From the NCBI GenBank assembly GCA_963839475.1, contig CAWIVH010000018.1, forward strand, positions 9,012 to 73,011: a stretch of 64,000 nucleotides of DNA, read 5' to 3'. Origin of the DNA: an uncultured Acidobacteriota bacterium (GTDB lineage Bacteria; Acidobacteriota; UBA6911). Below the pieces are notes generated by a model. That model searched no databases. It was not told the DNA's origin and saw only the letters and a program-made list of their open reading frames with translations. Below are positions 16,867-60,879 of the stretch, piece by piece; within the stretch, counting starts at the first letter, position 1; every line of letters begins with the position of its first letter. Both the position numbers and the translations under genes were made by a program.

Positions 16867-16902
16867 AACGGTCCAAATCGATCGAACCTGAGGAGGTTCA
16901 TC

Positions 16903-42493: not shown

Positions 42494-42915
42494 ATTGAAC
42501 CTCCTCGGATAAAAAAATATTTTTGCGCAAACTCCTGACCCGGTCATGCCGGCTTGAGGATGCTGTAAACCGCCAGCCAGATCAACGCTATATTAAAGGA
42601 AAAACGGTTGCAGGAATAGCGGAGGATCCTGCAGATGCTTTGCCCCCGGGTTGTATTCTCCAGATGTTGCTTTCTAAAATAGTGTCACTATATTAATGCC
42701 CGACCGCTCGGGGAGCAGCTTAAGCCGCGGCTTCTCTAATTTCACTTTTCTGCTACTCTACTTTGTTGGCATTTTGCATTTCCGGAGGGGCGGGGGAGAT
42801 CGGGGTGTTTTTTTGCTTCGGGTTTCGCGCACTTGCGCTGCGGTACGAAGGCAAAATGTTCAGCTCTGGGAAGAACCGTCTCCTGAAGAATAAAGAATTG
42901 CTGGAGTGAGATCCT

Positions 42916-44744: not shown

Positions 44745-45083
44745 GTGATGGATTGGACTATTGCAGTCATTGCCGTAGTTGCTGTTGCAGTTCTCTTCCT
44801 TTTCAAGCGCATGTCGATGCTATCCGAGGAATCGGCCCGCAGACTGCTCGCGGAAGGAGCTCTGGTCATCGACGTGCGTTCCCCAGAAGAATTTCGCGAT
44901 CGGCAGGTGCCCGGCGCTGTCAACATCCCGCTCAGCCAAATCAAAGAGGCTTTGCCCAAGCGCGTCCCCAATCACAGCACGCCGCTGTTGCTGCACTGTC
45001 TGAGCGGCACGCGCAGCGGCATGGCGAAACAGCAGGCTGAAATCGATGGGCTATACGAACGTGCACAATCTGGGCTCCTATAG
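44745..45083 (+). CDS. Single-domain rhodanese (sulfurtransferase), membrane-anchored
   Basis: Active-site loop LLHCLSGTRSG (CxxGxR). N-terminal TM helix IAVIAVVAVAVLFLF. Confidence 0.85.
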   Translation: MMDWTIAVIAVVAVAVLFLFKRMSMLSEESARRLLAEGALVIDVRSPEEFRDRQVPGAVNIPLSQIKEALPKRVPNHSTPLLLHCLSGTRSGMAKQQAEIDGLYERAQSGLL

Positions 45084-45389
45084 CCGAGCAAAAAAAATCG
45101 TGGAGAGCCAGAAAAAATAGGGAATTTGAATTGGATGGTCTTTGCCGAGCTTGATTTCAGCGTGTCCACAGCAGCCTGCCCCTGCCGCATCCAATATTTG
45201 CAGATTGAACCCATCGCCTGATCCAACCCGATTTGCGGACTGACAGCAGAGAAGCGCAGTGTGTCTGCTGTCACAAACTACTGTAACCCGATCGCTCCGC
45301 ATTCACGACATATTGTCCTAGAACAGGAAAAACCAGCATCGAGAGGTGCTGCGAAAAAAAAGGTTTTCCTTACTGAGGAGGAATGTCCT

Positions 45390-48116
45390 ATGCGTCAGCC
45401 CAATCAACGGTGTGGAGTCCCAGCGGCGCTGATGAATTTGAAAAATCTCGCGGCACTGCTCTTTGCATTCTGTTTCCTGGTCAGCGGCGTTTGTGCCCAG
45501 AACCGTTACTACATGCCGCAAATTGCTAACGGTCGCGACAGCGCCGGAACTTACAAGACAACATTCGTTCTAAATAACAATTCTGCCACCAAAGCCACCG
45601 CTACCTTGCAGCTTTCCGATGATAACGGCAACCCGCTGGCAATAACGATTGGCGGGAATTCCGACAGCCGCTTTGTCATTCAAATGCCCGCCGGAGGAAC
45701 TCAACTACTCCAGACCGACGGCCTGGGAAGCCTGGCAAGCGGCGCCGCCAAAATTGATTCAACGGCGGCCATCGGAGTTTCATCCATTCTCAGCATTTAT
45801 GATTCGAACGGGAACTGCAGAGCCGAAACAGGGATTGGTAGCTCCGAACCAATGTCCAGTTTCGTGTTTCCTGTGGATACAACGGGCGCATTCAATACCG
45901 GTCTGGCGCTTTACAACATAAATGATTCCAGTGTCACTGTGACGATGACCTTGCGCAGCACAACCGGACAGCAGGCTGCTTCGCCGGTAGTACTGACGAT
46001 GGCTGCGCATCGCCACTTCGCAAGATTCGTTTCCGGTGCCGGGCAACTCTTCCCGCAGATAACAAATTTCCAGGGCACACTGTTGGTCCAATGCTCCGAA
46101 CCCATTGCTTCATCGGTGTTGCGGCAAAATACCACGCCGCTTTCCTATACGTCCCTTTCCGGGATATCGACAGCATCGACGCAGAAAATAATGAATCTTG
46201 CTCAAGTGGCCAATGGTTCCTTTGGAAGCGGGGGATATAAAACCTCATTCCTCATTTTCAATATTTCCGCGGTCCCGGCCAACCTGACCCTGAGCCTGAC
46301 GAATGACAGAGGCAGACCATGGAAGGTGCCCATTACTGGTCGGGGGGAAGACGACAAGTTCACAATCTCCAACCTGGCGTCGGGCGCTTCCCTGTTCCTC
46401 CAGACTGAGGGTTCCGGCGAATTGACAACCGGCGGAGCCACGATAACCTCCGATGTCCCGGTGGGAGTTTCCGGCATCTACACACTTGTGGACTCCCGGG
46501 GATCCTTTCAAACTGAAACGGGGGTTGGATGCTCGCCAACCCTGACATCGCTGACCCTTCCCGTCAGCATTTCGGGCAGCTTCGACACCGGTGTCGCCTT
46601 TTTCGGGGTGAGCGGCTCCAATGCCGCGCTCACCTTCCGTCTGCGGGATGCCGGCGGAATGCCTGTCGGACAGAGCATTTCAGGGAATCTGCCTGCAAGC
46701 GGCCATATGGGAGTTTTCGTATCCCAACTTTTCAACGGCATAGAAAATTTCAAAGGATCGCTTTCCGTTTCTTCAACCACAGGCATAGCGGCGCTCACCT
46801 TGCGCGTGAACACTTCCCCGATTTCCTTTACCACCTTTCCGGTCACGGCGGGAATCCCGAGTTCAGCCGGCGGCGCCAGATTCACCATTGCAGAAACCAT
46901 CTCAGATCAGGCTCAGAGCACAACCCTCGCCTTCTCGGGCCTGGCGATGATGACCGGTAACCTCGAAGCTCAGTCCTTTTTCCCGCCGGGCAAAGTGGCC
47001 GACTACACCGGTTTTCAGTATCTGCGCGACAATGATCCCGACAATATGGGCCACAACACCAGCTTCCTCACCCGCATCGCCAACAACGTGATCTTCCTCT
47101 TGGACGACAGCCAGTTTGCCAAACTGAAGACTCTGGCCATCGCACAGCTCCAGCAGATCGACCTGTACGGGTATAAGCGCTTCCCCCTGATGAAGGCCTT
47201 CCGCAGGGTTATGAACAGTGAAATCCCTGCCGGGTCGGCCGGATTGAACCTGAACGCCGTAAAAAAGGCCTCACGGGAGCTCTATATCCTGGACGGCCAG
47301 ATCAGCTATGACCGAGCCGTGCTCTATGCCGCCATAATCCGGTCCCTGGACAGCACTCAAAAAGCCTACCTGGACGCGATGAAGGGCAAAGGCTGGAACT
47401 CCTGGCCTGATATCTCCGAAGCTCAGGTTCAAACCAGGATGAGGAGCCTGCCCCAGGGCACTGCCGTTGCGGTGATGACCTATGCCAGCGACCTGTTCAG
47501 TTGGTATGCGGGCTCCGTCGAAGCTGACGTCTACTTCTGCCCCGAGCGCCAGGGAACCTACTATGGCTCTTTTTATATCAAGGATGCTCCTGCCATCGGC
47601 CATGAAGGATACGGCATCAATGAGCAACTGACAGCCACGGCCGGGTCTGCACTTTGCGACAGCAAGCAAGGCTATGTAACGGAAGCTCAGGCAGCCACAA
47701 TGACGAGCCTGGTAGACAGACAGAGAAACAATCTCTACGCCTCCACAACCTCGAATATCGTCTCGGTCCGGACGGAAATCGCCACATTGCTGCGTGACTT
47801 GCTCACCACGACGAGCTCACCCGACACGATCAAAGCCAAGGTCCTGGCACTATCGGGAACTTACGGCGATCTGGACGGCGAAAACAATTATTACTACGCC
47901 AGCGTTTTCGCCCAAGTCTACAAAACGCTGAGCACGGAGCAGAAGACCAAGCTGGCAGGCCTGCGAAAATCGATCATGTCCGGGACGTACTCCGACGGCA
48001 CTGCCTTTGATTTTTCCACTTGCTCCACCCCATTCCTCTATTCCAGCGTCATCACGGATGTCAGCCAGCTGGCACCCTATTTGAGCAATACTGACTTTCT
48101 ATTTTTCGAGCCCTAA
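45390..48116 (+). CDS. Large secreted protein: N-terminal array of about 5 copies of the recurring uncharacterised module (~nt 45510-46870), then a ~420-aa C-terminal domain of unknown function (largely alpha-helical by composition)
   Basis: Signal peptide MRQPNQRCGVPAALMNLKNLAALLFAFCFLVSGVCAQ after RBS ggagga. Copies begin YYMPQIANGRDSAGTYKTTFVLNNN, ..NTGLALYNINDSS.., LAQVANGSFGSGGYKTSFLIFNIS and ..DTGVAFFGVSGS.., with ends ..SVLRQNTTPLSYTSLSG and ..ALTLRVNTSPISFTTFPV. Confidence 0.75.
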   Translation: MRQPNQRCGVPAALMNLKNLAALLFAFCFLVSGVCAQNRYYMPQIANGRDSAGTYKTTFVLNNNSATKATATLQLSDDNGNPLAITIGGNSDSRFVIQMPAGGTQLLQTDGLGSLASGAAKIDSTAAIGVSSILSIYDSNGNCRAETGIGSSEPMSSFVFPVDTTGAFNTGLALYNINDSSVTVTMTLRSTTGQQAASPVVLTMAAHRHFARFVSGAGQLFPQITNFQGTLLVQCSEPIASSVLRQNTTPLSYTSLSGISTASTQKIMNLAQVANGSFGSGGYKTSFLIFNISAVPANLTLSLTNDRGRPWKVPITGRGEDDKFTISNLASGASLFLQTEGSGELTTGGATITSDVPVGVSGIYTLVDSRGSFQTETGVGCSPTLTSLTLPVSISGSFDTGVAFFGVSGSNAALTFRLRDAGGMPVGQSISGNLPASGHMGVFVSQLFNGIENFKGSLSVSSTTGIAALTLRVNTSPISFTTFPVTAGIPSSAGGARFTIAETISDQAQSTTLAFSGLAMMTGNLEAQSFFPPGKVADYTGFQYLRDNDPDNMGHNTSFLTRIANNVIFLLDDSQFAKLKTLAIAQLQQIDLYGYKRFPLMKAFRRVMNSEIPAGSAGLNLNAVKKASRELYILDGQISYDRAVLYAAIIRSLDSTQKAYLDAMKGKGWNSWPDISEAQVQTRMRSLPQGTAVAVMTYASDLFSWYAGSVEADVYFCPERQGTYYGSFYIKDAPAIGHEGYGINEQLTATAGSALCDSKQGYVTEAQAATMTSLVDRQRNNLYASTTSNIVSVRTEIATLLRDLLTTTSSPDTIKAKVLALSGTYGDLDGENNYYYASVFAQVYKTLSTEQKTKLAGLRKSIMSGTYSDGTAFDFSTCSTPFLYSSVITDVSQLAPYLSNTDFLFFEP

Positions 48117-48255
48117 GTTTATTTGCTCCAGATATTTAACCGCGAGGACCTTGAGGACTTCAATGGCGGAAAAGCCCTTAGGGTCTTCGCGGTTTTTGTG
48201 GTTCAATCTGCCATTGGTTCTTTGAGGCAATTTTTCTCAATCAGATGTAAACCTT

Positions 48256-48864
48256 ATGGGACCATATTTCGACAATATGGGTATGAAGGTCGCGACTGCC
48301 GTCCTGGAGAGTGGAGGATCCCTGGCCCGCATGATGCCCATCGATTTCGGAGCCTGGATGCTTGCGGAGCAAAAGCGGATCTTCCTGCTCTGTTTTCGTG
48401 TGCTTCGAAACAGGGACGAAGCCGATTCGGCCACCCAGGATGTTTTTGTGGAAGCCTATCGGGCATGGGAGCGGTCCGGTGACAACGCCATTCAGGAACC
48501 GGCCAAATGGCTTACGCGGGTTGCGCTCAATACCTGCTATGACTGCCTCAGATCGAAGCGATGGAAGTTCTGGCAAAGGCGGATTTCCGGTGAAAACGAA
48601 GATATCGTTTTCCGGTCGAAACCAGCCGGAGGTCTGAGCCCTGAAGAGGCTCTGATCGGCCGCGAACTTTCCGGACGGATCCGCGATTCGCTTCACAGGC
48701 TCTCGGTAAGACAGAGATTGGTTTTTGTTCTCAGATTTGAAGAAGATCTCAGCCTGGCTGAAATCGCTGAAGCTCTAGATCTCGATCTGGGAACGGTCAA
48801 GGCGCACATGGCCCGAGCGATCAAAAAGCTTCGTGAGGAACTGAGGGGGCTTTATGTCCAATAA
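48256..48864 (+). CDS. ECF (sigma-70 family, group 4) RNA polymerase sigma factor
   Basis: Region 2 ..DVFVEAYRAWE..WLTRVALNTCYDCLR. Region 4 LSLAEIAEALDLDLGTVKAHMARAIKKLR. Confidence 0.85.
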   Translation: MGPYFDNMGMKVATAVLESGGSLARMMPIDFGAWMLAEQKRIFLLCFRVLRNRDEADSATQDVFVEAYRAWERSGDNAIQEPAKWLTRVALNTCYDCLRSKRWKFWQRRISGENEDIVFRSKPAGGLSPEEALIGRELSGRIRDSLHRLSVRQRLVFVLRFEEDLSLAEIAEALDLDLGTVKAHMARAIKKLREELRGLYVQ

Positions 48865-49279
48865 CCACTACAGCGATGATGACCTGGTGGCCCGGCTTTA
48901 CGGCCTCGGGCCCGCTGATGCGCACCTCGACAGCTGTGAGATGTGCAGGCAACGTTGGAATAAGATGCTGGAGCGACATCAGCTTCTGCACTCTACGGAT
49001 ATTGATGTCCCTGTGGAATTGCTCGCTGCCCAGAGACGCGCCGTTTACGCCCGGGTGGAACAGAAGCCCCGGAAGCTGCGAACCGCCTGGCTGCCGTTGC
49101 CGGTCGCAGCCCTTGTGCTGGTACTGCTGGTTTTCACCTTTTTCAAGCCGGCATTGCATCAGCAGCCCGCTGATGCAATTTCCGACGACGCTGCACTGCA
49201 GGATGTCTTCACAGTGGCATCCAGAACTGATCCGGCTGGCCTCGAGCCCGTCCAGTCCCTGTTTGAGGAGCAAAAATGA
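48854..49279 (+). CDS. Anti-sigma factor (zinc-finger-type N-terminal domain, single TM helix)
   Basis: HLDSCEMCRQRW motif. TM helix LPLPVAALVLVLLVFTFF. Start overlaps the sigma-factor stop. Confidence 0.65.
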   Translation: MSNNHYSDDDLVARLYGLGPADAHLDSCEMCRQRWNKMLERHQLLHSTDIDVPVELLAAQRRAVYARVEQKPRKLRTAWLPLPVAALVLVLLVFTFFKPALHQQPADAISDDAALQDVFTVASRTDPAGLEPVQSLFEEQK

Positions 49280-49782
49280 AGACGCGAGTGTTCTTGCAGC
49301 TTTCAATGTGCATTTTCCTGCTCCCCGCCATCGCCCCGGCGCAGGCAAAGCCTAACCGGCCGGAAATGTCCCGCTGGTGGGAACGCCCGGTGGTACGCGA
49401 CATCGGGCTGAGCGCCGAACAGGACAAGCAGGTCCGGGATATCGTGCGCGAGTCCCGGGAACGGTTGATTCAGCTGCGTGCGGCTCTGGATTCCGCTGAG
49501 TCCGCGCTGGCGGATGAAATGGGCGAAGATAAAATCGACCCCAAAAAGGCAGACATGGCGATCGACCGGGTGATCACTGCCCGGGCGGAACTCCAGCGGG
49601 CCATAGCTCGCATGAGCTTGAAGATTCGGCTGATCCTCACCATTACGCAATGGCGTGAACTTGAAAAGCGGGAGGCCGATCAACCGCCCCCGCCGCAAGA
49701 TCAGCCAAAACGCAAGGCAGAACCGGGAGATAAGCCACGCCCGCCTGCCCCTCCGCTCGAAAAAGACGGACAAGAAAACTGA
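49276..49782 (+). CDS. Periplasmic LTXXQ-motif (Spy/CpxP-like) stress protein
   Basis: Signal peptide MKTRVFLQLSMCIFLLPAIAPAQA. LSAEQDKQVRDI and LTITQWREL motifs. Start overlaps the anti-sigma stop (ATGA). Confidence 0.65.
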   Translation: MKTRVFLQLSMCIFLLPAIAPAQAKPNRPEMSRWWERPVVRDIGLSAEQDKQVRDIVRESRERLIQLRAALDSAESALADEMGEDKIDPKKADMAIDRVITARAELQRAIARMSLKIRLILTITQWRELEKREADQPPPPQDQPKRKAEPGDKPRPPAPPLEKDGQEN

Positions 49783-49991
49783 ATCAATCCATCATCCGGC
49801 GGAGCATAAACAGTCTATTCTCTCCACCTGGCATTGCCGGGGGACGCCAACCCATACCGGGGAGCGCGGACCCGAGGGTGGAACTCTGCCGAGGCAACCG
49901 ATTGTGAAATCTTATGAAGCACGAGGATAGACCGCCAACTCGGGCCATCCTCATGCCCGAGCATCCACGCTCTCGAAGGAGGCCAAGGGAA

Positions 49992-52900
49992 ATGCGATCC
50001 TTTACCGCATGCGTTATCGTCACTCTGTCTTTGATTGGATTTTACGGGAGTTCGCCCGCTCAGACCGCTGCGGGTCCGTCCATGGTTTTCATTCCTGCCG
50101 GTTCATTCAGCATGGGCGACCACCACAATTATGTGGATCCCGCACACCCGAGCGATGAAACACCGCTTCATACTGTCAGCATCAACGCTTTATACGCGGG
50201 GAAATACGACATTACGGTCCAGCAATACTGCGATTACCTCAACTCAGCCATATCGCAGGGATTGATTCGTGTGACGAGCGGCATCGTGTATGCATCGGGT
50301 GGAAGCGATGTTTTCTTCCAGACCCGCCAGGCCGACCAATACAGCCGCATCGATTGGGATGGCAGCCGGTTTTCGGCACTCGACGGGCGCGGCAATCACC
50401 CGGTTACCAGCGTGCTTTGGCACGGAGCCGCAGCCTACTCCAACTGGCTCAGCGCGCAGCAGGGTTATCAGGCCTGCTACAACACTTCGACCTGGGCATG
50501 TGACTTCACCAGGAACGGCTACCGCCTGCCCACAGAGGCCGAGTGGGAATACGCCGCCCGCGGGGGCCAATATAATCCCTATTACAACTTCCCTTGGGGT
50601 AACGACATAACGATGTCGAAGGCGAACTTCCCCGGCTCAGGGGATCCCTATGAATCCGGCGCCCTCCCCAACACCACCCCCGTCGGATTCTATAATGGGG
50701 AACTGCGTCGCAAATCCGACTTCAATTGGCCGGGCAGCCAGGAAACCTATCAAACGTCGGACGGTTCTAACGGTTTCGGCCTCTACGACATGGCGGGCAA
50801 CGTCTGGCAGTGGTGCAACGACTGGTATGGGCAAAGCTACTACGCTTCGAGCCCGTCCTCCAATCCGACCGGGCCTACGACCGGAACCCCCATGCCGGAC
50901 GGCAAGCCCTATCGCGTCCTGAGAGGCGGAAACTGGTATAACGGCGACGGTCTGGATCCGGGGCATGCGCGCGTTTCCAACCGGGATCCCGCATATTATC
51001 GGGGACCACAGGATCCCAACCACCCTTATTACCATGTGGGATTCCGCGTGGTAAGAAGTAATGTAACCGCCAGCACAACTACAAGCACTCAAACGGTGGG
51101 CCTGTTCGTCAATGACTCCAGAGCCTGGGAAGGTTACACCCTCATCGCCCCCAAGCATTACGGTAGCACTTACCTGATCAACAACCAGGGCAGGCTCGTT
51201 CATTCCTGGTCGGGCAGCAAATACGAGCCGGGACAGTCGGTCTACCTTCTGGAGAACGGCAACCTGCTGCGCGCATGCATGGTCAAAGGCCAGTTAAGTT
51301 CCGGAGGAGGCGAGGGCGGACGGGTTGAGGAATACGATTGGGACGGGAACCTGGTGTGGCAGCTGGATTACTCCACCAGCCAATACACCCAGCACCACGA
51401 CATCAAACCGCTTCCCAACGGCAACATCCTGATGCTGGTCGTGGAAAAGAAAACCTACGATGAGGCGATTGCCGCAGGGTTCGACCCGAGCAAGTTCCAG
51501 TCGCAGATCCAGCAGCAGGGATATATGCTCCCCGACTCGGTCATAGAAATTAAACCGACAAGGCCGTCGGGGGGAACCGTTGTCTGGTCGTGGCATGTTT
51601 GGGACCACCTGATCCAGGACTACGCATCATCCAAAGCGAATTACGGCAGTGTGGCAGCCCACCCTGAACTGATCAATCCGGCTGCCGACGGGGGGCAGAT
51701 CCCTTCCTTCTGGAACCACATGAATGCGATCTACTACAACGCAGCCTTCGACCAGATTATGCTCAGCGTCCGGGGAAACAGCGAAATCTGGGTCATCGAT
51801 CACAGCACCACCGATGCGGAAGCTGCGGGACATTCAGGAGGAAAATATGGGAAGGGGGGAGACCTGCTATACCGATGGGGCAATCCGATCATGTATCGCG
51901 CCGGCACGAAAAGCGATCAGAAGCTCTTCCAGCAGCACGACGCCCAATGGATAGACGCCGGATACCCCGGCGCCGGAAATATCCTGGTATTCAACAACGG
52001 GCTCGGTCGCAACTATTCCACTATTGACGAATTCACTCCGCCGGTCGACTCCAAAGGGAATTATTCCTATACCAGCGGTTCGGCGTTCGGCCCCAAAGAT
52101 TTCGCCTGGACCTACAAGGCAAACCCTCCGGCCTCACTTTATGCCGAGGCGATCTCGGGAGCACAACGGCTGCCGAATGGAAATACACTGATCACCGATG
52201 GCACACACGGGACATTCATAGAGGTTACCGCCGGCGGGGAGACGGTCTGGAAATATGTCAATCCTGTCGTACTCACCGGCCCGCTGGCGCAATCGGCCAC
52301 AATACCCGCTGACCCGGCACGAGCCGGCGAATTCATGAACGCCGTGTTCCGTGTCCGCCGATATTCCCCGAATTACGCCGGGCTTGTAGGCCGCACTCTG
52401 ACTCCCGTCGGAACCATCGAACTGAAAGGCTACAGCAACACCAACTATTTCCCCCACGTCGCCTCCGACGGCACATGGGAAACCGAAATAGCACTCATCA
52501 ATACCAGCGCCGATCAGACAGTCACCGGGATCTGGAGACCGTTTACCAATGACGGCCGCCAGCTGGACACACAGCAGATCTCCCTGGCTCCGCGATCAAG
52601 ACGCGAGATCATTATCGGCAGCGCATTGGCAAATGCAAAGTTGACCGGGTATGCCCTCTTTGAAGCGGATTCGGCTTCTTTAGCCGGCTATACCAAGTTT
52701 TATGTGCCGGGGAAATACCGGACCGCGGTTCCGTCCATTTCGACCGCAAGTTCGGGAAATCTCTTTCTGTCTCATATCGCTTCAGACGACCTCTGGTGGA
52801 CCGGAATGAGCCTGGTCAATACCACTCAGTCGAGCAAGACGGTGACGATTCAATTCGACAACGGCGAATCCCGGACCGTCACGATAGGCGCCTTATCCCA

Positions 52901-53711
52901 CAATGCCCTCCTGTTGGAAAGCCTATTCGGCAGCAAGCCGCAGCCCAACATACATTCGGCCGTGCTGAAAGATGCGGCAGGAATTGTGGGAGTGGAGCTT
53001 TTTGGCAGCGGGAGTCAGTTGGCGGGTATCCCCCTGACCAACGACACGTCGACCGTTGTTTATTACCCCCACATCGCCGCCGACTCTCACTGGTGGACCG
53101 GTGTTCTTGCCTTCAATCCTGGAGAAGAGGCGGGCGACCTGGTCCTTACACCTTACAATGAAGATGGCCGGCCCCTGATAACTTTGAGCCGCTCCCTGCT
53201 GGGCAAATCGAAATACATAGGGACAACAACGACGCTGGGATTGCCCGCGAATGCGGCGTGGTTCCAGATCGAATCAACCAAGCCCATCTCCGGATTCGAA
53301 TTATTCGGCGCCCAACAGGAAAGCCTCCTAGCAGGATTTCCGGGAACTGGTTTGAAAAGCAGGAATGCTGTCTTTCCCAAAAAAGAAAGGGCAGGCTGGA
53401 CAGGCATCGCCCTGGTCAACCTGGAGAATGATCCGGCGACGGTTTCGTTAAACGCCTATGACGACGCCGGAAGTGTCGTAACCTCCAACACCTTCAGCCT
53501 GGGAGCTCACGCCAAGATGTCGAAATACGCCCAGGAATTCTTCGTGCAGGATATCGCCAGAGCCACTTATTTCAGCTATTCATCCGATAAGTATCTGGCG
53601 GGATTCCAGCTCAATGGTTCGACAGACGGGACCATGCTGGACGCGCTCCCGGCCCGGTTGGAGAAGCAAGGCGCACCTGAAACCCAAAGCCCAAAACAGC
53701 AGCGGAGCTGA
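49992..53711 (+). CDS. Secreted three-part protein: FGE-sulfatase-fold (SUMF1-like) domain that appears to lack the catalytic Cys pair, an arylsulfate sulfotransferase (ASST)-like beta-propeller, and 4 copies of the recurring uncharacterised module (~nt 52447-53711)
   Basis: FGE fold: MVFIPAGSFSMGD..GYRLPTEAEWEYAARGG..GLYDMAGNVWQWCNDWY..RVLRGGNW..HVGFRVVRS. ASST: ..WSWHVWDHLIQD.., NHMNAIYYN, QHHDIKPLPNGNILML. Module copies begin YFPHVASDGTWETEIALINTS, LFLSHIASDDLWWTGMSLVNTT, VYYPHIAADSHWWTGVLAFNPG and AVFPKKERAGWTGIALVNLEND. Confidence 0.8.
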   Translation: MRSFTACVIVTLSLIGFYGSSPAQTAAGPSMVFIPAGSFSMGDHHNYVDPAHPSDETPLHTVSINALYAGKYDITVQQYCDYLNSAISQGLIRVTSGIVYASGGSDVFFQTRQADQYSRIDWDGSRFSALDGRGNHPVTSVLWHGAAAYSNWLSAQQGYQACYNTSTWACDFTRNGYRLPTEAEWEYAARGGQYNPYYNFPWGNDITMSKANFPGSGDPYESGALPNTTPVGFYNGELRRKSDFNWPGSQETYQTSDGSNGFGLYDMAGNVWQWCNDWYGQSYYASSPSSNPTGPTTGTPMPDGKPYRVLRGGNWYNGDGLDPGHARVSNRDPAYYRGPQDPNHPYYHVGFRVVRSNVTASTTTSTQTVGLFVNDSRAWEGYTLIAPKHYGSTYLINNQGRLVHSWSGSKYEPGQSVYLLENGNLLRACMVKGQLSSGGGEGGRVEEYDWDGNLVWQLDYSTSQYTQHHDIKPLPNGNILMLVVEKKTYDEAIAAGFDPSKFQSQIQQQGYMLPDSVIEIKPTRPSGGTVVWSWHVWDHLIQDYASSKANYGSVAAHPELINPAADGGQIPSFWNHMNAIYYNAAFDQIMLSVRGNSEIWVIDHSTTDAEAAGHSGGKYGKGGDLLYRWGNPIMYRAGTKSDQKLFQQHDAQWIDAGYPGAGNILVFNNGLGRNYSTIDEFTPPVDSKGNYSYTSGSAFGPKDFAWTYKANPPASLYAEAISGAQRLPNGNTLITDGTHGTFIEVTAGGETVWKYVNPVVLTGPLAQSATIPADPARAGEFMNAVFRVRRYSPNYAGLVGRTLTPVGTIELKGYSNTNYFPHVASDGTWETEIALINTSADQTVTGIWRPFTNDGRQLDTQQISLAPRSRREIIIGSALANAKLTGYALFEADSASLAGYTKFYVPGKYRTAVPSISTASSGNLFLSHIASDDLWWTGMSLVNTTQSSKTVTIQFDNGESRTVTIGALSHNALLLESLFGSKPQPNIHSAVLKDAAGIVGVELFGSGSQLAGIPLTNDTSTVVYYPHIAADSHWWTGVLAFNPGEEAGDLVLTPYNEDGRPLITLSRSLLGKSKYIGTTTTLGLPANAAWFQIESTKPISGFELFGAQQESLLAGFPGTGLKSRNAVFPKKERAGWTGIALVNLENDPATVSLNAYDDAGSVVTSNTFSLGAHAKMSKYAQEFFVQDIARATYFSYSSDKYLAGFQLNGSTDGTMLDALPARLEKQGAPETQSPKQQRS

Positions 53712-53826
53712 AGGCCCGAAGGGCCGGAAGAGAATAGCCGGGGGCGCGAGCCCCCGGATTGATTTGTTCTCCGGACGAGCCCCGAAAGGGGCGACAGGAT
53801 GAATCTACTCCTGTTTTGATGGCATT

Positions 53827-55365
53827 CTAATGACCCATCCGTTTTTGGAAATAGGCAATCATCTCCTCCCGGTGGTTGTCGGTCCGGGACGGCACATTCG
53901 GTTGCCGGATCTCCGGAGCGTTTTCATCCAGATAGGGTTTGGCTGCAACATCTTGCGGGCGCCATGCAGCGATGGCCCGTATAAGTTCGCTTATCTCCCG
54001 ATGGAACCGGGCATCGCCGTAGAGGTTGTTGATTTCGAACGGGTCCGCATCCAGATCGAAGAAGAGCGACCTCTCTGCCGGTTTGCGTAAAATCAGCTTG
54101 TACTGCTTCGTGCGGGCCATCCATTGGCCGGCGCTTTCCGAAAAAACAACCGTTCTTCGTGCTGACGTAGCCAGATTCAAACCGCGCATCCCCGCACCAG
54201 GCCGCAGGCCAGCCTGGTGTAGTATGGTTGGCGCCAAATCCACCGTACTGGCCAGAGTGGTGTCCACCCGGCCGCGCGAAACACCCCGGGGATATTTAAT
54301 GATGAGTGGCACCTTCACAACCGGGTCGTACATGAGATTGCCCTTTAAGAGGAGGTGATGGAACCCCATGTAATCCCCATGATCGGAAGTAAAAACAATG
54401 AGAGTGTTGTCGTAAAACCCCTTCTCTTTGAGAATACGCACCATTCGGCCGACGTGGAAATCGATCTGGGAAATGCTGGCATAGTAAAGAGCCGTAACGA
54501 TTTTCAGCGCCCCCGCTGTGAGACTGGCGTGGGGGAAGTATCCTGCGCTGGTTTCGATGTCCCGCGCCAAAGGCTCCTCCGTCCAGCCGGGCAGGAGCGA
54601 GATTTGCGAGGGATCGTATTTGGAATCCCAGGGAGCCGGCGGGTCAAAGGGATGGTGCGGCTTGATGAAGCCGACCATCAGCAGGTTTCCCGATGGCGTC
54701 CAACGCCGCAGGGACTGAATGGCCCTCTCCGCAATCCATGTCGTTGAATGGTGCTGTTCCGGAAGGTTTGAACGGCGGGCCCCGAAGGACTGCCAATACT
54801 CTTTTGTTGCTTTGGCGCGATATTCCGAACGTTGATCTTCAAGATCGAGTGCGTCGACCAGGTCCAGGGATTTCAAGTAGCGGTGATAATCATCGTCAAA
54901 TCGCCCGGGCCCATCCTGCTCCGCCAATTCCAACTCCTCGAATCCGACATCCAGGTAGGTCGGGGTAAAATGCATCTTCCCGACGGCTTTGGTACGGTAC
55001 CCAGCCTTCTTGAGAATGGAAGGAAAGGTTTCAGTCCCCGGCCGGAGCGTCGCGCGGTTGCTGGATCCCTGGTGCTCGTGGGTCCAAAGGCCCGACAGGA
55101 AGGAATAGCGCGACGGGGTGCAAACAGGGTAGGGACAGAAAGAATTCGTGAAGCGCACTCCTTCACTCGCAAGCGCGTCAATGGCCGGGGTGCGGATTTC
55201 GCGGTTGCCATAAGCGCCGAGGCATTCCAAACGATGCTCATCGGTGTGAATGATCAGGATGTTGGGCTTTGCCGCGGCGTCCCCGGACTTCCGTCCGCCT
55301 CCCAAAACAGTCGCTGCGCCGGCGGCCGCTGCCTGTTGGATGAACTTGCGCCTATCTGTTTTCAT
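53827..55365 (-). CDS. Cys-type sulfatase (alkaline-phosphatase superfamily) with a TAT signal
   Basis: MKTDRRKFIQQAAAAGAATVLGGG (twin-Arg). Sulfatase signature PNILIIHTDEH..CPYPVCTPSRYSFLSGL (C-T-P-S-R). Confidence 0.85.
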   Translation of the reverse strand: MKTDRRKFIQQAAAAGAATVLGGGRKSGDAAAKPNILIIHTDEHRLECLGAYGNREIRTPAIDALASEGVRFTNSFCPYPVCTPSRYSFLSGLWTHEHQGSSNRATLRPGTETFPSILKKAGYRTKAVGKMHFTPTYLDVGFEELELAEQDGPGRFDDDYHRYLKSLDLVDALDLEDQRSEYRAKATKEYWQSFGARRSNLPEQHHSTTWIAERAIQSLRRWTPSGNLLMVGFIKPHHPFDPPAPWDSKYDPSQISLLPGWTEEPLARDIETSAGYFPHASLTAGALKIVTALYYASISQIDFHVGRMVRILKEKGFYDNTLIVFTSDHGDYMGFHHLLLKGNLMYDPVVKVPLIIKYPRGVSRGRVDTTLASTVDLAPTILHQAGLRPGAGMRGLNLATSARRTVVFSESAGQWMARTKQYKLILRKPAERSLFFDLDADPFEINNLYGDARFHREISELIRAIAAWRPQDVAAKPYLDENAPEIRQPNVPSRTDNHREEMIAYFQKRMGH

Positions 55366-55655
55366 CGCGATTTCCCGAAATACATGCAGCCAATTGAGCT
55401 GCTCATTCACAAATTCTAATAAAAGAGCCACAGACCGCTTTTGTATATCACAACGGGCAGTTTTTTGGCCGTTTACTTCCGCCATGCAGTTATCCGGGAA
55501 AACAGGGACGCCACCCAACTGCAGCTGCTGGAATGGGCCGGGAATCTAATGATGCTGAAATGCATGTAATTGGGCAGCGTCCAATTTCCCATATTTTTGG
55601 ATCCGCCTGTAACCCTGGATGTTCGATTTTACGACAATACAACCAGACTGCCTGA

Positions 55656-55847
55656 GTGGAAGACTCAATGAGGAAAAGCCTGATCGTTTTGCTCGGCTCG
55701 GGGAACCCAGCTGCCGTAACCGTACAATATCTGGGAGACGACGGCATGCCTCTTTCTGTGGGTGGAAGTCGAAAAGGCAATGCATCCAATTCGAATTCCA
55801 ACCTTTCAGCGATTACGACTGCTACAATTTCTCGGGAGAAAAAATGA
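55656..55847 (+). pseudogene. Relic fragment of the recurring module (C-terminal ~30 aa), upstream of and out of frame with the next gene
   Basis: The fragment reads LIVLLGSGNPAAVTVQYLGDDGMPLSVGG. It aligns with FILLSAGDPAAATLSFFGQDGSPLAVGK at the 3' end of 55844..58696. Codon usage differs, so it is not a recent copy. Confidence 0.35.
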
Positions 55848-58696
55848 AGAAACGCACCCTGATTCCCCAGCTTCTGGCTCTGTGGTCCGGCATAACCGCC
55901 CTTTCATGGCTGCTTGCAGCATCCGACATCTTCATAGATACGGAGCTATTGGGCCGTCCGACAGGCACCTCCATTACGGTCAATGCCCTCGCCCGCAAGG
56001 ATCTCGAAGTTTATTTTGAATACGGACCATCGACCGGCAGTTATGTTCTCCAGACCGATACGAATAAATATCCTGCAGAAACCCCGATAGAGGCTGTAAT
56101 GGACAGGCTCGAGCCTGATAAGCAGTATTACTACCGGATGCGCTATCGAGAAACCGGAGCCACGGTTTTTTCAGCCGGGGAAGAACACTCCTTTCATACC
56201 CAGAGGCCACGCGGCAGCACATTCACTGTCGCCATTGAAGCCGACCCGCACATGGATGAAAACTCCGATCCGGAAACCTACCGTCTGACGATGCAGAACG
56301 TGCTCTCGGAAAAACCGGACTTCCAGATCGACCTGGGCGACACCTTCATGTCCGACAAACTTTCCCAGCCCACTTATAAGGCGGTCCAGGACCGTGCGCT
56401 CCTTCTCCGATCGTATTACGATATCAATGGGCATTCGGTCCCGCTGTTCCTGACCCTGGGAAACCACGAAGGTGAATGGGGGAGCCGCTTGACCAACTCG
56501 GCGGAAAACCTGCCGGTGTGGGACACGCTGATCCGGAAACTTTACTATCCCAACCCCTTCCCGGACGGATTTTATAGCGGCGGCAGCAGGGAGGAAAAAT
56601 ATGTGGGATTGCGCGAGAGTTACTACGCGTGGGAATGGGGTGACGCGCTCTTTGTGGTCCTGGATCCTTATTGGTACACGGTGCAATCGCCGGATTTGAG
56701 CGGGGACTGGTCGCTTACTCTGGGCCGTGAGCAGTATGCGTGGCTGAAAGCGACTCTGGAAGGCAGCCGAGCAACTTTCAAGTTCGTTTTTTGCCACAAC
56801 CTTGTAGGTGGATGGAACAAAAACGGCACGGGCCCCATGCGCGGTGGAGTTGAGGCGGCCAAATACCTGGAATGGGGCGGCTACAACCTGGACGACACCT
56901 GGGGCTTCGACAAGGCTCGCCCTGGCTGGGCGATGCCGATACATAAGCTGCTGGCCGCCAACAATGTGACCATCTTCTTCCATGGCCACGACCATGTCTA
57001 TGCGAAGCAGGATCTGGATGGGATCGTTTATCACGAGATTCCGCAGCCCAGCGCAAGAAATACCGAATTGGGCAATCGGGCGGCTTCTTATGGCTATACC
57101 CAGGGCAAGCTCCTGGGCGGAACCGGTCATCTGCGCATGCGCGTGTCCCCCAGCGAAGTAACGGTGGATTATGTCCAGACCTGGACACCTCAAAATGAAA
57201 CAGGCAGCCGGAAAAACGGACTGGTCGCGGACTCCTATACGATTGCTGCAAAAAACCGGACCAAGGCAAACCTGTCCGTTGCTGGCGGAGGTGCGGCAGA
57301 CACCGCCACCGCCGGCGCAGCCTCCCCGCTCCAGTCAGGCTACGCAACCACGGCCATCGCCTCCGGCAGTGCGCCTTACGGAAACGCCGTCTTCAGCTTC
57401 GCACGCAATGGAACCACCGTAAGCGAAGCCGCCGTTCCCGCTTCACCGCCCGCTTCCGCCTCCAGGATCTTCGTCGACTGCGCCCTCCGTGTCGCTTCCG
57501 GCCCCGAACGCCTCCGCACCGCGCCCGTCGACATCTATACCGGAATCGCCGTCGTCAACCCCGGCTCCGCCGCCGCCAACATAACCTACACCCTGCGCAG
57601 CCTCGACGCTGAACCCCTTTCCGTCGGACACGGCACCCTTGCCGCAGGCGCACAGCGCGCCCGATTCCTTCACCAGCTCCAGGACCTCGCCCCGGATTTC
57701 ACACTCCCGCCCGGCTTCGCCTCCACTACACGCTTCGGCTCGCTCGAAATCTCCTCCGATCAGCCGCTTTCCATCGCCGCCCTCCGCATGACCGTCAACC
57801 AGCGCGACGATTCCCTCTTTACCACCGTGCCCGTCGCCGACCTCTCCCGCTTGCCTTCTTCCTCCACCGTCTTCTTCCCCCATGTCGCCGACGGAGACGG
57901 CTACGTCTCCACCTTCATTCTCCTCAACACCTCCAGCTCGCCTCAAACCGGCCTCCTGCGCTTCCTTACCGATACCGGCTCGCCACTCACCATTCACCAG
58001 GTAGGCGGTACTGCTGACTCCTCTTTCCGCTACAGCATTCCTCCCGCCGGCACATTCCTCTTCCAGACCGACGGCTTCTCCACTTCCCTGCTCTCCGGCT
58101 CTCTCCAACTCATCCCCGACTCGGGCTCCACTTCCCCCGTCGGCGCCGGCATCTTCAGCAGAACCAGCAACGGCTTCCTCGTCACCGAATCCGGTATCCC
58201 CTCAGCTTCGCCCGGCACTCACGCCCGCATCCATGTCGACATGACCAACGGCCATGATTCGGGACTCGCGATCGCCTCCACCTCTTCGTCCGACCTCCCC
58301 GTCACCCTCCGCGCCTTTCAGAGCGACGGCTCGACCGCCGCGGGATCCCAGGCCATTACCCTCACCGTCCCCGGCAACGGCCATACAGCCGCTTTCGTCC
58401 GCCAGTGGATCTCAGGATTGCCCGCCGATTTCAAAGGCGTGCTCGATATCTCCGCCCCCGCTCCCTTTGCCGCCCTTACCCTGCGCGCCCTCACCAACTC
58501 GAGGCAGGATTTCCTCATCACCACCTTCCCGATCGCCGACTGGACCCGACCGGCACCGGCCCCTGTACTCTTCCCCCACCTCGCTGATGGCGACGGATAC
58601 AAAACCGAATTCATCCTCCTCAGCGCCGGCGACCCCGCCGCCGCTACCCTCAGCTTTTTCGGACAGGATGGATCCCCCCTCGCCGTGGGGAAGTAA
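55844..58696 (+). CDS. Secreted calcineurin-like metallophosphoesterase (PhoD/purple-acid-phosphatase-like) fused to ~4.4 C-terminal copies of the recurring uncharacterised module. The last copy is truncated after ..PLAVGK.
   Basis: Phosphoesterase motifs DLGDTFMSD, LTLGNHEG, CHNLVGG and FHGHDHVYAK. Signal peptide MKKRTLIPQLLALWSGITALSWLLAA after RBS gggaga. Module copies include VFFPHVADGDGYVSTFILLNTSS and VLFPHLADGDGYKTEFILLSAG, with ends ..IAALRMTVNQRDDSLFTTVPVAD and ..ALTLRALTNSRQDFLITTFPIAD. Confidence 0.8.
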   Translation: MKKRTLIPQLLALWSGITALSWLLAASDIFIDTELLGRPTGTSITVNALARKDLEVYFEYGPSTGSYVLQTDTNKYPAETPIEAVMDRLEPDKQYYYRMRYRETGATVFSAGEEHSFHTQRPRGSTFTVAIEADPHMDENSDPETYRLTMQNVLSEKPDFQIDLGDTFMSDKLSQPTYKAVQDRALLLRSYYDINGHSVPLFLTLGNHEGEWGSRLTNSAENLPVWDTLIRKLYYPNPFPDGFYSGGSREEKYVGLRESYYAWEWGDALFVVLDPYWYTVQSPDLSGDWSLTLGREQYAWLKATLEGSRATFKFVFCHNLVGGWNKNGTGPMRGGVEAAKYLEWGGYNLDDTWGFDKARPGWAMPIHKLLAANNVTIFFHGHDHVYAKQDLDGIVYHEIPQPSARNTELGNRAASYGYTQGKLLGGTGHLRMRVSPSEVTVDYVQTWTPQNETGSRKNGLVADSYTIAAKNRTKANLSVAGGGAADTATAGAASPLQSGYATTAIASGSAPYGNAVFSFARNGTTVSEAAVPASPPASASRIFVDCALRVASGPERLRTAPVDIYTGIAVVNPGSAAANITYTLRSLDAEPLSVGHGTLAAGAQRARFLHQLQDLAPDFTLPPGFASTTRFGSLEISSDQPLSIAALRMTVNQRDDSLFTTVPVADLSRLPSSSTVFFPHVADGDGYVSTFILLNTSSSPQTGLLRFLTDTGSPLTIHQVGGTADSSFRYSIPPAGTFLFQTDGFSTSLLSGSLQLIPDSGSTSPVGAGIFSRTSNGFLVTESGIPSASPGTHARIHVDMTNGHDSGLAIASTSSSDLPVTLRAFQSDGSTAAGSQAITLTVPGNGHTAAFVRQWISGLPADFKGVLDISAPAPFAALTLRALTNSRQDFLITTFPIADWTRPAPAPVLFPHLADGDGYKTEFILLSAGDPAAATLSFFGQDGSPLAVGK

Positions 58697-59097: not shown

Positions 59098-60879
59098 GTG
59101 GACTGGAAACTCAGCCATCCGCTGGACAGTAACGCGCAAGCGAGGGACCATTCCAAATCTGAGGCGCAATTCTCGGAGCACTCGATGACCGCTGGATCTG
59201 AGGCGAAGAGGCCGGGCCGGTTATTCCGCGTGGCGCGGATGCTTGCTCTTGTCATCCTGCTCTGCGCCGCGCTTATTTACTTTTTCTACATTCTCCCGTT
59301 TTGGGGCGTCCCGTTTAACCGTTCCCGCCATGGCCGGGTGCCGCTGACCCCACCCTGGGCGCTGGAATGCTGGCTTTGGGAAGACGATGTCAACACTGCC
59401 GCCCGCGTGAACGAATTGCTGGAGGGTTACGCCAGATACGATTTACCGGTGCGTACCATTCTGATCGACAACCCCTGGAGCTGGCGCTACAACGATTTCA
59501 AGGTGGATGAGAATCGCTATCCTGATCCTGCGGACTATTTCCGGCAACTCAAGAGCCAGGGATACAGGATCGTGTTGTGGATGACCTGCATGGTCAACAG
59601 CCAGAATAAAGATACGCTCATCAAGGAAGCATCAGATTTCTACGAGGAGGCTCGATCCAAAGGATATTTGGCGGGCGACGGCTTCCAGTTCCGCTGGTGG
59701 AAGGGCAAGGGGGGCTTCATCGATTACAGCAATCCCAATGCGATGAAGTGGTGGCAGGAACTTCAGCAGCAGGTTCTGGATTGGGGTGTGGACGGATGGA
59801 AGTTGGATGGGACCGATACGTTCTTCTCAGGGAGCATCCTGAAGATCCCAGTTCCGTTCAATCGCACTTATTCGGGATGGATGACCACGCGGCAATACAT
59901 GGATCACTACGCCCGTGACGAGTACCGGCACGGCTTGAGCCACAATCCGGAGTTTGCCATCCTGGTCCGCGCCATGGACCAGCGATGGAGCCACCCGGAA
60001 GGCTTCTCGCCCATCGATTCCGCTACGGTGACCTGGGTGGGCGACAACAACCACACCTGGGGGTTTGAGGACCGGGGCATTCAGGGAGCCATCTCGGACA
60101 TTCTCGCGAGCGCAAAGTTGGGTTATTGCGTCATCGGCAGCGATGTGGCCGGCTACCATGGCAAAAGTAATCCCGAGGATGTCGGGCCAGCCACGGCGGC
60201 TTTGCTGGGGTCCTGGTCCAAGCCTGCGAGCGGCCAGGCCATGGCGCCTGGCCAGTTCGGTACTGCCTCTGACAATGACATTGCGCCCAACGTTTATATT
60301 CGCTGGGCTGAGTTCTCGGCCTTCTGCGGCCTTTTCCTGAACGGAGGACACGGCGAACGGCGTTTGTGGAAACGCTCCCTGCCGGAGCTGGAAATCATCC
60401 GCAAGTTCTCGTGGCTGCATACCGAGCTGGTGCCCTACATGTATTCGTATGTGGTTGAGTGTCACAATGGCGCACCGCCGCTGATTCGGCCGCAGGGAAA
60501 GGGCAAGTTCCATTATCTATTCGGTAATGAACTGCTGGTCGCGCCGATTTATGCCGACAGGCTCAACTGGACTGTATCGCTGCCACCGGGCCGTTGGCGT
60601 TATCTATTCCACGACGATAGGGTCCTCCCGGGACCGGCGGAGATACCCCGGGAGTTTCCACTTGATGAATACCCGGTCTTCGTCCGCGAGGGCGCAGTCA
60701 TACCGATGAAAGTCAGCCGGCCTTACGCAGGATTCGGAGATGGCGGTTCAGCCGGTTTCACGACATGGCTGGTTTATCCGGACGAACCAAAGCAAATTCA
60801 CGCTGTGGCATCCCGAATCACATCCGAAGCCAGAGGCAACCACTCTCAAGGTGGATTCCGGCCCGACGCTCAGGCTTGA
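59098..60879 (+). CDS. GH31-like TIM-barrel glycoside hydrolase with N-terminal membrane anchor. Start uncertain; possibly the ATG at 59185.
   Basis: GH31-like catalytic regions GVDGWKLDG (nucleophile region, divergent from WIDMNE) and VTWVGDNNHTWGFE (acid/base region, cf. HWTGDxxSxWE). TM helix LALVILLCAALIYFFYILPFW. Confidence 0.6.
   Translation: MDWKLSHPLDSNAQARDHSKSEAQFSEHSMTAGSEAKRPGRLFRVARMLALVILLCAALIYFFYILPFWGVPFNRSRHGRVPLTPPWALECWLWEDDVNTAARVNELLEGYARYDLPVRTILIDNPWSWRYNDFKVDENRYPDPADYFRQLKSQGYRIVLWMTCMVNSQNKDTLIKEASDFYEEARSKGYLAGDGFQFRWWKGKGGFIDYSNPNAMKWWQELQQQVLDWGVDGWKLDGTDTFFSGSILKIPVPFNRTYSGWMTTRQYMDHYARDEYRHGLSHNPEFAILVRAMDQRWSHPEGFSPIDSATVTWVGDNNHTWGFEDRGIQGAISDILASAKLGYCVIGSDVAGYHGKSNPEDVGPATAALLGSWSKPASGQAMAPGQFGTASDNDIAPNVYIRWAEFSAFCGLFLNGGHGERRLWKRSLPELEIIRKFSWLHTELVPYMYSYVVECHNGAPPLIRPQGKGKFHYLFGNELLVAPIYADRLNWTVSLPPGRWRYLFHDDRVLPGPAEIPREFPLDEYPVFVREGAVIPMKVSRPYAGFGDGGSAGFTTWLVYPDEPKQIHAVASRITSEARGNHSQGGFRPDAQA

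Follow-up and report, generated by a model that had tools for sequence, protein, structure and literature searches.

In this study we analysed a stretch of 64,000 nucleotides from an uncultured Acidobacteriota bacterium (the window; GTDB lineage UBA6911, assembly GCA_963839475.1, contig CAWIVH010000018.1, positions 9,012 to 73,011 of the forward strand), and in particular one gene in it that encodes a secreted protein joining a domain of the formylglycine-generating enzyme (FGE) fold to a propeller of the arylsulfate sulfotransferase (ASST) type. We consider it rather probable that this fusion protein is a component of a conserved, horizontally spread enzyme module that works outside the cytoplasm and is driven by an extracytoplasmic function (ECF) sigma factor, and that the sulfatase encoded next to it is no core member of this module. 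Our best guess for the role of the module is the extracytoplasmic processing of sulfuryl, possibly phosphoryl, esters. Apart from the FGE-like/propeller pair, the module also has purple-acid-phosphatase-like metallophosphoesterases, one or two in number, and in many cases an all-α protein. With the exception of P951_C, the C-terminal domain of a partner protein called P951 here, all domain families involved are known, and the homologs are public under generic or misleading names.

The fusion protein and its homologs

An AGGAGG sequence 8 nt 5' of the ATG at 49992 marks the best start of the fusion open reading frame (ORF), which runs to a stop at 53711. The secreted FGE-fold and ASST-like architecture proposed in the initial annotation is borne out by Pfam and alignments, although the length is 1239 aa and not 1240. 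A Sec-type signal peptide is followed by the FGE-fold domain (FGE-sulfatase PF03781, aa 29-355, E 2.6e-44), a linker of ~30 aa, the six-bladed-propeller-like domain at aa ~380-790 (Arylsulfotrans PF05935, aa 393-742, E 4.8e-19, 69 bits against a cutoff of 24.2; PF14269, E 3.6e-9) and four C-terminal β-repeats. The latter fill the last ~430 aa (aa ~812-1239) with units of ~105 aa of the type 'FPH(V/I)A..g..W.T.i.l.N', for which we found no Pfam family and only sub-threshold similarity to DUF5719.

The pairing of the two domains is widespread. In a search of 5.8 billion proteins, in which 8000 candidates were scored at a cutoff of E ≤ 1e-10, at least 3964 homologs of the fusion protein were found, and the best 120 of these 3964 all carry both domains at 52-80% identity; the nearest relatives, at 80-82% identity, come from an uncultured Acidobacteria metagenome-assembled genome (MAG). 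The domain order varies among homologs (FGE-ASST, ASST-FGE or ASST-FGE-ASST), as do the flanking domains (Lcl_C/DUF1566, PKD, PEBP, SGL, EF-hand and tails of the type IX secretion system, T9SS), and in loci of Bacteroidota and Ignavibacteriota the FGE-like domain and the propeller are encoded by separate neighbouring genes. The T9SS tails on Bacteroidota homologs point to secretion. Judged by this co-occurrence, the two modules, FGE-like and ASST-like, form an obligate pair of the Rosetta-stone type.

When one genome per GTDB species was scanned, at least 546 loci were found, of which the best 80 were used to study neighbourhoods by calling ORFs and comparing them with the window proteins; frequencies were counted over the 60 loci of at least 10 kb. 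The best 80 loci belong to Bacteroidota, Acidobacteriota, Verrucomicrobiota, Lentisphaerota, Planctomycetota and Ignavibacteriota, and further to Hydrogenedentes, KSB1, Desulfobacteraceae, Geobacteraceae and Rhodoferax, and almost all are MAGs from stratified boreal lakes, Lac Pavin, the Experimental Lakes Area, peat and similar sites. An FGE-like domain is present in 54 of the 60 loci and a homolog of the metallophosphoesterase core (E 1e-94 to 1e-163) in 38, followed by ECF sigma factors (16), PF13801/LTXXQ proteins (15), LytTR response regulators (13), P951_C (10) and sulfatases (8). A Pfam scan of 148 further neighbouring ORFs revealed nothing recurrent (top family 4/148) and no Pst/PhoU, true FGE or anaerobic sulfatase-maturating enzyme (anSME). 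One complete cluster (propeller, phosphoesterase fragments and P951_C; locus L024, CAIUPH010000038.1) lies on a contig binned as Candidatus Bathyarchaeota, which is either a mis-binning or an inter-domain transfer. Double Lcl_C domains (DUF1566, PF07603) are very frequent in L002, L003, L019, L025, L072 and L082-L085, where they form an N-terminal extension of the FGE-like protein or the phosphoesterase or a separate T9SS-secreted protein; YHYH (PF14240) proteins also recur in these loci.

The active site of E. coli ASST consists of His436, which forms the sulfo-histidine, together with His252, His356, Asn358, Arg374 and Thr501 (PMC13426309, a review). A profile of 15 family propellers aligned to E. 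coli ASST (3elq) with E 2.2e-6, placing 'FWNHMNsi...SVR' on His356, Asn358 and Arg374 and 'QQHD' on His436; in the mutant H436N chains 4p04-4p06, an Asn stands in exactly the column of the propeller's His649. The match of 'QHHD' to His252 rests on a weaker stretch of the alignment. The window residues are accordingly H469 (H252), H576 (H356), N578 (N358), R594 (R374) and H649 (H436), and among 203 propellers of this class (class 1) H469, H576, N578 and H649 are invariant and R594 is kept in 201, whereas Thr501 is replaced by Ile or Ser. In the AlphaFold2 (AF2) model the propeller has a predicted local distance difference test (pLDDT) score of 80-90, and the top Foldseek matches in the PDB are Cpz4 (E 4e-13) and E. 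coli ASST. The ASST-like propeller of the initial annotation is thus confirmed, with the catalytic His/Asn/Arg set present on the profile alignment; on this alignment it is an enzyme of the ASST type whose set of oxyanion-binding residues and nucleophile is complete, and it looks catalytically competent. It shares the β-propeller fold, the active-site residues and the extracytoplasmic location with E. coli ASST (3ELQ) and with the PAPS-independent Cpz4 of Streptomyces (9KF4/9KF6). In contrast to these, the family has an FGE-fold domain attached and forms a separate, very tightly conserved clade with partners of its own (the phosphoesterase and P951_C). A divergent paralog, the class-2 propeller, was seen beside class 1 in L002, L003, L019, L025, L033, L035, L079 and others, and as the N-terminal copy in giant proteins of the ASST-FGE-ASST order; the window has none. 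Class-2 propellers have H, Q, E or A in place of Arg374, and just 53 of 72 keep the nucleophilic His.

The FGE-fold domain matches the FGE of S. coelicolor (6muj/2q17) at E ~5e-21 as a single sequence and at 1.4e-31 as a family profile. With human SUMF1 and the enzymes of S. coelicolor and T. curvata it shares the fold and the framework motifs RLPTEAEWEYAARGG, GNVWEW and RGG...GFR. It differs from them in that both Cu(I)-binding cysteines are gone family-wide, in an additional near-invariant, disulfide-like cysteine pair (C162/C170) inside an insert, and in its secretion along with a propeller enzyme. Following RVLRGGNW (aa 311), the domain reads YNGDGLDPGHARVSNRD, and the cysteine pair is missing; where the Cu-Cys block of a true FGE reads 'RGGSYLCHDSYCNRYRVAAR', the fusion family reads 'RGGNWYNG....GHsRVsNR'. 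In the alignment to S. coelicolor FGE, an Asn that is invariant in the family takes the place of the first Cu-ligand Cys, and the position of the second is in a loop of variable length. Of the 160 FGE-like domains of the family, 152 are free of Cys in the former active-site segment, 8 have some and none has the pair, as the initial annotation had supposed for the window protein. Because the pair is absent across the family, the domain cannot, on these alignments, be an aerobic Cu-dependent FGE or a formylglycine generator. The former active-site segment is instead occupied by an invariant cluster G-H-x-R-V-x-N-R...Y (invariant residues N292, G293, G299-H300, R302, N305-R306 and Y310 in the numbering of alignment A2), within a domain of ~66% mean column identity across phyla.

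The domain scores far under every NCBIfam equivalog cutoff; its best NCBIfam match is the structural T9SS protein PorK/GldK (E 1.7e-29, far under the cutoff), and the Cys-less FGE-fold enzymes EgtB, OvsA and PvdO are among its PDB and NCBIfam matches. At NCBI the homologs are labelled 'SUMF1/EgtB/PvdO family nonheme iron enzyme'. The FGE fold without the FGE cysteine pair is common to PorK/GldK, PvdO, the C-domains of EgtB/OvsA and Treponema TvpA, but the window protein differs from these in having no DinB-type iron domain and other partner domains. A second FGE-fold ORF or a convincing anSME was not found in the 64-kb window, in agreement with the earlier suggestion that the real FGE may be encoded elsewhere; the only ORF with CxxxCxxC (16402-17622) had no Pfam match and was rejected as an anSME.

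Conserved partners and the neighbouring sulfatase

The most conserved neighbour of the fusion gene is not the sulfatase but a secreted metallophosphoesterase of the dinuclear-metal kind (signal peptide MKKRTLIPQLL). Its core resembles purple acid phosphatases and PhoD, with Pfam matches to Metallophos, Pur_ac_phosph_N and PhoD and all five metal motifs of calcineurin-like metallophosphoesterases (DPH, GDTF, GNHE, CHN and GHDH; PF00149), but it differs from such enzymes in forming a tight clade of its own that is linked to the FGE-like and ASST-like genes. It has 5239 homologs, of which the best 120 are mostly 53-77% identical and named 'metallophosphoesterase' or 'hypothetical'; a relative in the PDB was not detectable by sequence. 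In the loci it often occurs as two tandem paralogs, and in L042 and L047 it is fused with the propeller into giant ORFs.

The second partner is P951, which has a signal peptide and a likely start codon at 45390 or 45432. Its C-terminal domain P951_C (aa 531-951) is all-α and highly conserved, and neither a Pfam family nor a structural relative was detected for it. Many homologs of the fusion protein, and likewise of P951_C, carry a fused PEBP domain, which has an anion-binding fold. We found no characterised member in the families of the fusion protein, the phosphoesterase and the all-α domain. The interval 49992-55365 considered in the initial annotation leaves out both the phosphoesterase (55844-58696) and P951_C. 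In L087 a 46-aa ORF just 5' of the fusion gene (1036-1176) is a remnant of the P951_C C-terminus (KSIMSGTYSDGTPFD...LFFEP), which indicates recent rearrangement or decay within the cluster.

Directly downstream of the fusion gene and convergent with it lies a TAT-exported Cys-type sulfatase, as had been described: PF00884 matches with E 8.7e-44, the twin-arginine translocation (TAT) signal scores 20.1 bits against a cutoff of 16.7, and the protein has the fold and, in CTPSRYSFLSG, the C-x-P-x-R formylglycine motif of Type I (S1) sulfatases. In the window its gene is inserted, on the opposite strand, between the fusion and phosphoesterase genes. No sulfatase gene is found between these two in the three closest relatives with enough contig, where they adjoin each other directly on one strand: the order is LTXXQ - fusion - phosphoesterase in L087 (80% identity), sigma - anti-sigma - LTXXQ - fusion - phosphoesterase in L086, and sigma - anti-sigma - LTXXQ - ... 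- Lcl_C/phosphoesterase - fusion in L085. Since the gene is on the opposite strand, separated by a terminator and absent from this position in L085-L087, it is, by gene order, a lineage-specific insertion with its own transcription unit and no core member of the cluster. A motif scan of the window found no ECF promoter motif upstream of it. The functional partnership with the sulfatase that had been assumed from adjacency is therefore not upheld.

Sulfatases do occur in other loci. Planctomycetes, Verrucomicrobia and Lentisphaerae (PVC) are sulfatase-rich, and all eight sulfatase-bearing loci belong to these three groups and carry a subfamily other than that of the window. In four PVC loci (L059, L066, L078 and L079) the genes of Sec-type CTPSR sulfatases, orthologs with 51-80% mutual identity across Verrucomicrobia and Planctomycetes, overlap the start or stop of the phosphoesterase gene. 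To judge from gene arrangement, the system of these PVC lineages truly includes this dedicated sulfatase as an accessory, to which the window sulfatase shows no more than 25-35% identity in partial alignments.

The export routes bear on the same question. An FGE needs access to the unfolded sulfatase in the same compartment, whereas the fusion protein has a Sec signal and the sulfatase a TAT signal. Given how TAT export works, the sulfatase would have to fold and gain its formylglycine in the cytoplasm, and with the fusion protein exported by Sec this would argue against a maturation role of the FGE-like domain independently of the missing cysteines.

The remaining neighbours are less consistent. 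The rhodanese and Maf-like proteins noted earlier upstream are both present; the small rhodanese protein is a possible accessory, and a homolog stands beside the cluster in a Rhodoferax MAG (L051), but it recurs in only 2 loci. A protein with LTD and a PLD-like phosphodiesterase is encoded near the cluster both in the window (36269-38317, minus strand) and in the unrelated locus L081 (18328-20248). Two GFO/IDH/MocA oxidoreductases upstream (41150-42547, minus strand, with a TAT signal, and 39523-40716, minus strand) and a GH31 glycosidase downstream (59098-60879) do not recur in related loci. The β-repeat module 'FPH(V/I)A.G.G..T.i.l.N', with its sub-threshold likeness to DUF5719, is carried by at least five secreted window proteins: the fusion protein (52425-53708), the phosphoesterase (57500-58693), P951 (45480-46850) and, on the minus strand, the LTD and PLD-type phosphodiesterase (36269-38317) and an unannotated 1013-aa ORF (24038-27079). 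It was not found in the 80 distant loci, and only the four closest homologs (P0002-P0005) have the C-terminal region in common with the window; probably the module serves for anchoring or at the surface and is specific to this lineage.

The ECF sigma operon and its promoter motif

Just upstream of the fusion gene lies the operon of an ECF sigma factor, a zinc-finger anti-sigma factor and a periplasmic LTXXQ protein, as described in the initial annotation on the basis of sequence and supported here by Pfam, NCBIfam and motif matches; the LTXXQ gene ends at 49782, 209 bp before the fusion ATG (earlier given as 200 bp). By comparison with L086 the sigma gene most likely starts at 48283 and not at 48256; the latter position is inside the promoter. 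The link of this operon to the fusion gene is also seen elsewhere. The sigma/anti-sigma/LTXXQ trio occurs in ~15 distant loci within ~10 kb of the cluster (in the fetched loci), and L085 and L086 have it immediately 5' of the fusion gene or its cluster, as does L087, where the contig end cuts it. A sigma factor with regions 2 and 4 only, an HxxxCxxC anti-sigma factor at +1 and a PF13801 protein at +2 match the published description of ECF281, which has a zinc-finger anti-sigma at +1 and a heavy-metal-resistance protein at +2 and has been tied to heavy-metal stress by gene context (Casas-Pastor et al. 2021, PMC7826278). The gene layout and the autoregulated AAC/CGAC-type promoter are like those of ECF281 modules and CnrYXH, but the regulon of the window would differ from them in holding secreted enzymes and no metal efflux pump.

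A regulon motif was found by comparing upstream regions of the window with those of the relatives L085 and L086. This SigX-like motif, GTAA[ACT]C-N16/17-CGAC, has 6 matches in the window against 0.69 expected (maximum 4 in 200 shuffles), and 4 of the 6 stand on the plus strand before cluster genes, namely those of the sigma factor, P951 and the phosphoesterase. In L085 and L086 all five matches precede sigma, fusion or phosphoesterase genes (the phosphoesterase gene in one of the two), whereas 1.2 Mb of other loci gave only the background rate. The element before the sigma gene has the same spacing and the same GGGGTATGA(A/G)GG start context as its counterpart in L086 (4167-4193). These matches point to an autoregulated promoter common to the sigma gene and its targets. 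The fusion gene itself has no correctly spaced copy in the window, and the L087 spacer before the fusion gene has none either. With no motif of its own before it, and no terminator detected in the 209 bp that follow the LTXXQ gene, the fusion gene is probably transcribed together with the sigma operon or by read-through from it.

The -10 element ends ~7 nt before the revised sigma start both in the window (48247-48290) and in L086 (4167-4210), which suggests a leaderless or near-leaderless sigma mRNA. Other matches are on the minus strand (37781-37807 and 29658-29684, as well as 26678-26704 with GCAAC); one of them is inside the PLD-type gene or close to its start, and one is upstream of the 1013-aa repeat protein. 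They may extend the regulon or have arisen by chance. The classical ECF pattern GGAAC-N15-18-CGT was at chance level (7 matches against 7.8 expected). A 21-nt element, GGAAC-N11-AACCG, found ~90-120 bp 5' of the fusion and phosphoesterase genes, is weak, as the pattern was derived from the same two sites; it is absent in other loci and was superseded by GTAA[ACT]C-N16/17-CGAC.

Table 1. Positions of the genes and elements discussed (window coordinates unless a locus is named).
Feature	Position	Strand	Basis or remark
MptE-like/Maf-type protein	42916-44592		Pfam/NCBIfam
Small rhodanese-domain protein, possible accessory	44745-45083	+	Pfam Rhodanese E 6.7e-11
P951, secreted protein with N-terminal β-repeats and all-α C-terminal domain (aa 531-951)	45261-48116	+	
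ECF-type motif GTAACC-N17-CGAC	45283-45309	+	80-120 bp before likely P951 starts
Putative ECF-type autoregulatory promoter GTAAACC-N16-CGACAATA	48247-48273	+	Directly before sigma gene
ECF sigma factor	48283-48864	+	Sigma70_r2 and r4_2; TIGR02937, 82.7 bits against cutoff 42.9
Anti-sigma factor, HxxxCxxC zinc finger, one transmembrane helix	48854-49279	+	'AHLDSCEMC', then hydrophobic helix; NCBIfam E 6.9e-6
Periplasmic LTXXQ/Metal_resist (Spy/CpxP/ZraP-like) protein	49276-49782	+	PF13801 E 3.5e-13, signal peptide
GGAAC-N11-AACCG element (21 nt), post hoc	49880-49900; 55702-55722	+	Only two exact window matches
Secreted fusion protein, 1239 aa	49992-53711	+	ATG start, Pfam, alignments, AF2
GC-rich bidirectional terminator hairpin, fusion/sulfatase spacer	53738-53757		8-bp all-GC stem, both strands
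TAT-exported Cys-type sulfatase, CTPSR	53827-55365	-	PF00884, TAT profile, motif
Two tandem ECF-type motifs (55609-55635, 55716-55742)	55609-55742	+	Before phosphoesterase ATG 55844
Secreted metallophosphoesterase with C-terminal β-repeat modules	55844-58696	+	Pfam Metallophos E 3.1e-8, motifs, signal peptide
PVC sulfatase orthologs	L059 12714-14132; L066 18033-19430; L078 14051-15463; L079 16211-17731		

Alternative explanations and meaning

In the explanation that we favour, an envelope or periplasmic signal would release the sigma factor, and the secreted enzymes would then act on anionic esters outside the cytoplasm. In this lineage the autoregulated ECF sigma factor would drive the sigma operon and the P951 and phosphoesterase genes, and the fusion gene by read-through. 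His649 of the propeller may take a sulfuryl, possibly a phosphoryl, group from an aryl ester, forming a covalent adduct, and then transfer this group to water or an acceptor. The FGE-like domain might serve as a substrate- or partner-binding module, and the phosphoesterase would hydrolyse phosphate (di)esters.

Several observations weigh against this explanation. The propeller is distant from characterised ASSTs, with 13-16% identity (phmmer alone misses 3elq), and the fusion protein does not have the N-terminal β-sandwich domain of E. coli ASST. The two-domain core of the AF2 model has a mean pLDDT of 65.8 and its FGE part lies below 50, which makes the inter-domain geometry unreadable; a composite FGE/propeller active site was sought in this model, and the interface was uninterpretable. 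The missing motif copy before the window fusion gene and the sulfatase subfamily that is translationally coupled to the phosphoesterase in four PVC loci also count here, the latter leaving room for a looser sulfatase connection. The conservation of the FGE-like domain, together with its invariant N/G-H-x-R/N-R/Y cluster, is more constraint than is usual for a passive binding module. Finally, no paper on the fusion protein or the cluster was found in the searchable literature, which is incomplete.

As an alternative the system might scavenge phosphorus: the propeller would handle phosphate esters via a phospho-His and, together with the phosphoesterases, mineralise organic P in P-limited humic waters. 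The most conserved partner is indeed a phosphoesterase with all metal motifs, the PEBP fold is fused to many fusion-protein and P951_C homologs, one locus has a pstSCAB-phoU operon at a distance of 4-9 kb, and the PLD-type phosphodiesterase is near the cluster in the window and in L081. However, Pst/PhoU does not recur among the sampled neighbours, regulation is by ECF/LTXXQ or LytTR with no recurrent PhoBR-type regulator identified, and the active site has precisely the residues with which E. coli ASST binds the sulfuryl group. We regard this alternative as unlikely.

The conservation of the FGE-like domain leads to a further alternative, namely that it is itself a catalyst with new chemistry based on the Asn/His/Arg/Asn/Arg/Tyr cluster, the two domains performing consecutive steps on one substrate. 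Invariant residues are found exactly in the former active-site segment, and the other Cys-less FGE-fold proteins EgtB, OvsA and PvdO are enzymes. However, the metal-ligand pattern of known FGE-fold enzymes was not recognised, the best NCBIfam match is to a structural protein at a score far under the cutoff, and the FGE part of the AF2 model is unreliable, so that we give a catalytic FGE-like domain about the same low standing as phosphorus scavenging.

Somewhat less likely still is a function in polyphenol stress or detoxification (tannins, humic phenolics), in which polyphenol damage would be sensed by the LTXXQ/ECF system, and phenols would be made less toxic through sulfation by the ASST-type enzyme. 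Spy-family LTXXQ chaperones are induced by tannins, and the overwhelming majority of the loci are in MAGs of humic or stratified lakes and of peat. Characterised ASSTs do sulfate polyphenols (PMC13426309). This evidence is purely circumstantial, however; the roles of the phosphoesterase and P951_C are not accounted for, other authors have associated the ECF281-type architecture with metal stress, not with phenolics (PMC7826278), and the environmental bias may partly reflect the MAG sets in the collection. That the genes form a functional sulfate-ester cluster, the fusion protein and the Cys-type sulfatase next to it acting together, with the pseudo-FGE binding the sulfatase or its CxPxR motif or both enzymes having substrates in common, appears improbable, since the adjoining genes, the sulfate-ester chemistry implied by an ASST-type active site, the nearby rhodanese gene and the sulfatases of eight loci, with an orthologous subfamily overlapping the phosphoesterase in four, are set against the absence of the sulfatase from the three closest relatives, its low identity to the recurrent PVC-restricted subfamily, its convergent, terminator-separated position without an ECF motif, and a TAT export that would imply cytoplasmic maturation away from the Sec-exported fusion protein.

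Two domains of known but unrelated chemistry are kept as a pair in thousands of metagenomic proteins, which remain 55-80% identical across at least ten phyla, and such tight pairing and high identity argue for a strongly selected, mobile function. In databases the members go under 'formylglycine-generating enzyme required for sulfatase activity' or 'SUMF1/EgtB/PvdO nonheme iron enzyme'; for this family both names are wrong or unsupported. The autoregulated ECF sigma factor with its defined promoter motif offers a clean, testable regulon and makes the system experimentally approachable. Interest would be considerably higher if the three tightly conserved partners were found to perform new chemistry. 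As a bolder reading, to which we give only an outside chance, the window would hold a compact form of an undescribed, horizontally disseminated extracellular enzyme system under ECF control, made up of the Cys-less FGE-fold domain with the ASST-type propeller, the purple-acid-phosphatase-like esterases and the all-α protein. This system would transform sulfated or phosphorylated aromatic organic matter in anoxic humic freshwaters by a new multi-step route, and the repurposed FGE-fold domain would add a second new active site. The system appears to be concentrated in stratified humic lakes and peat, and if this habitat bias holds, its substrate is likely to be relevant to the turnover of organic sulfur or phosphorus, or to polyphenol tolerance, in carbon-rich anoxic waters.

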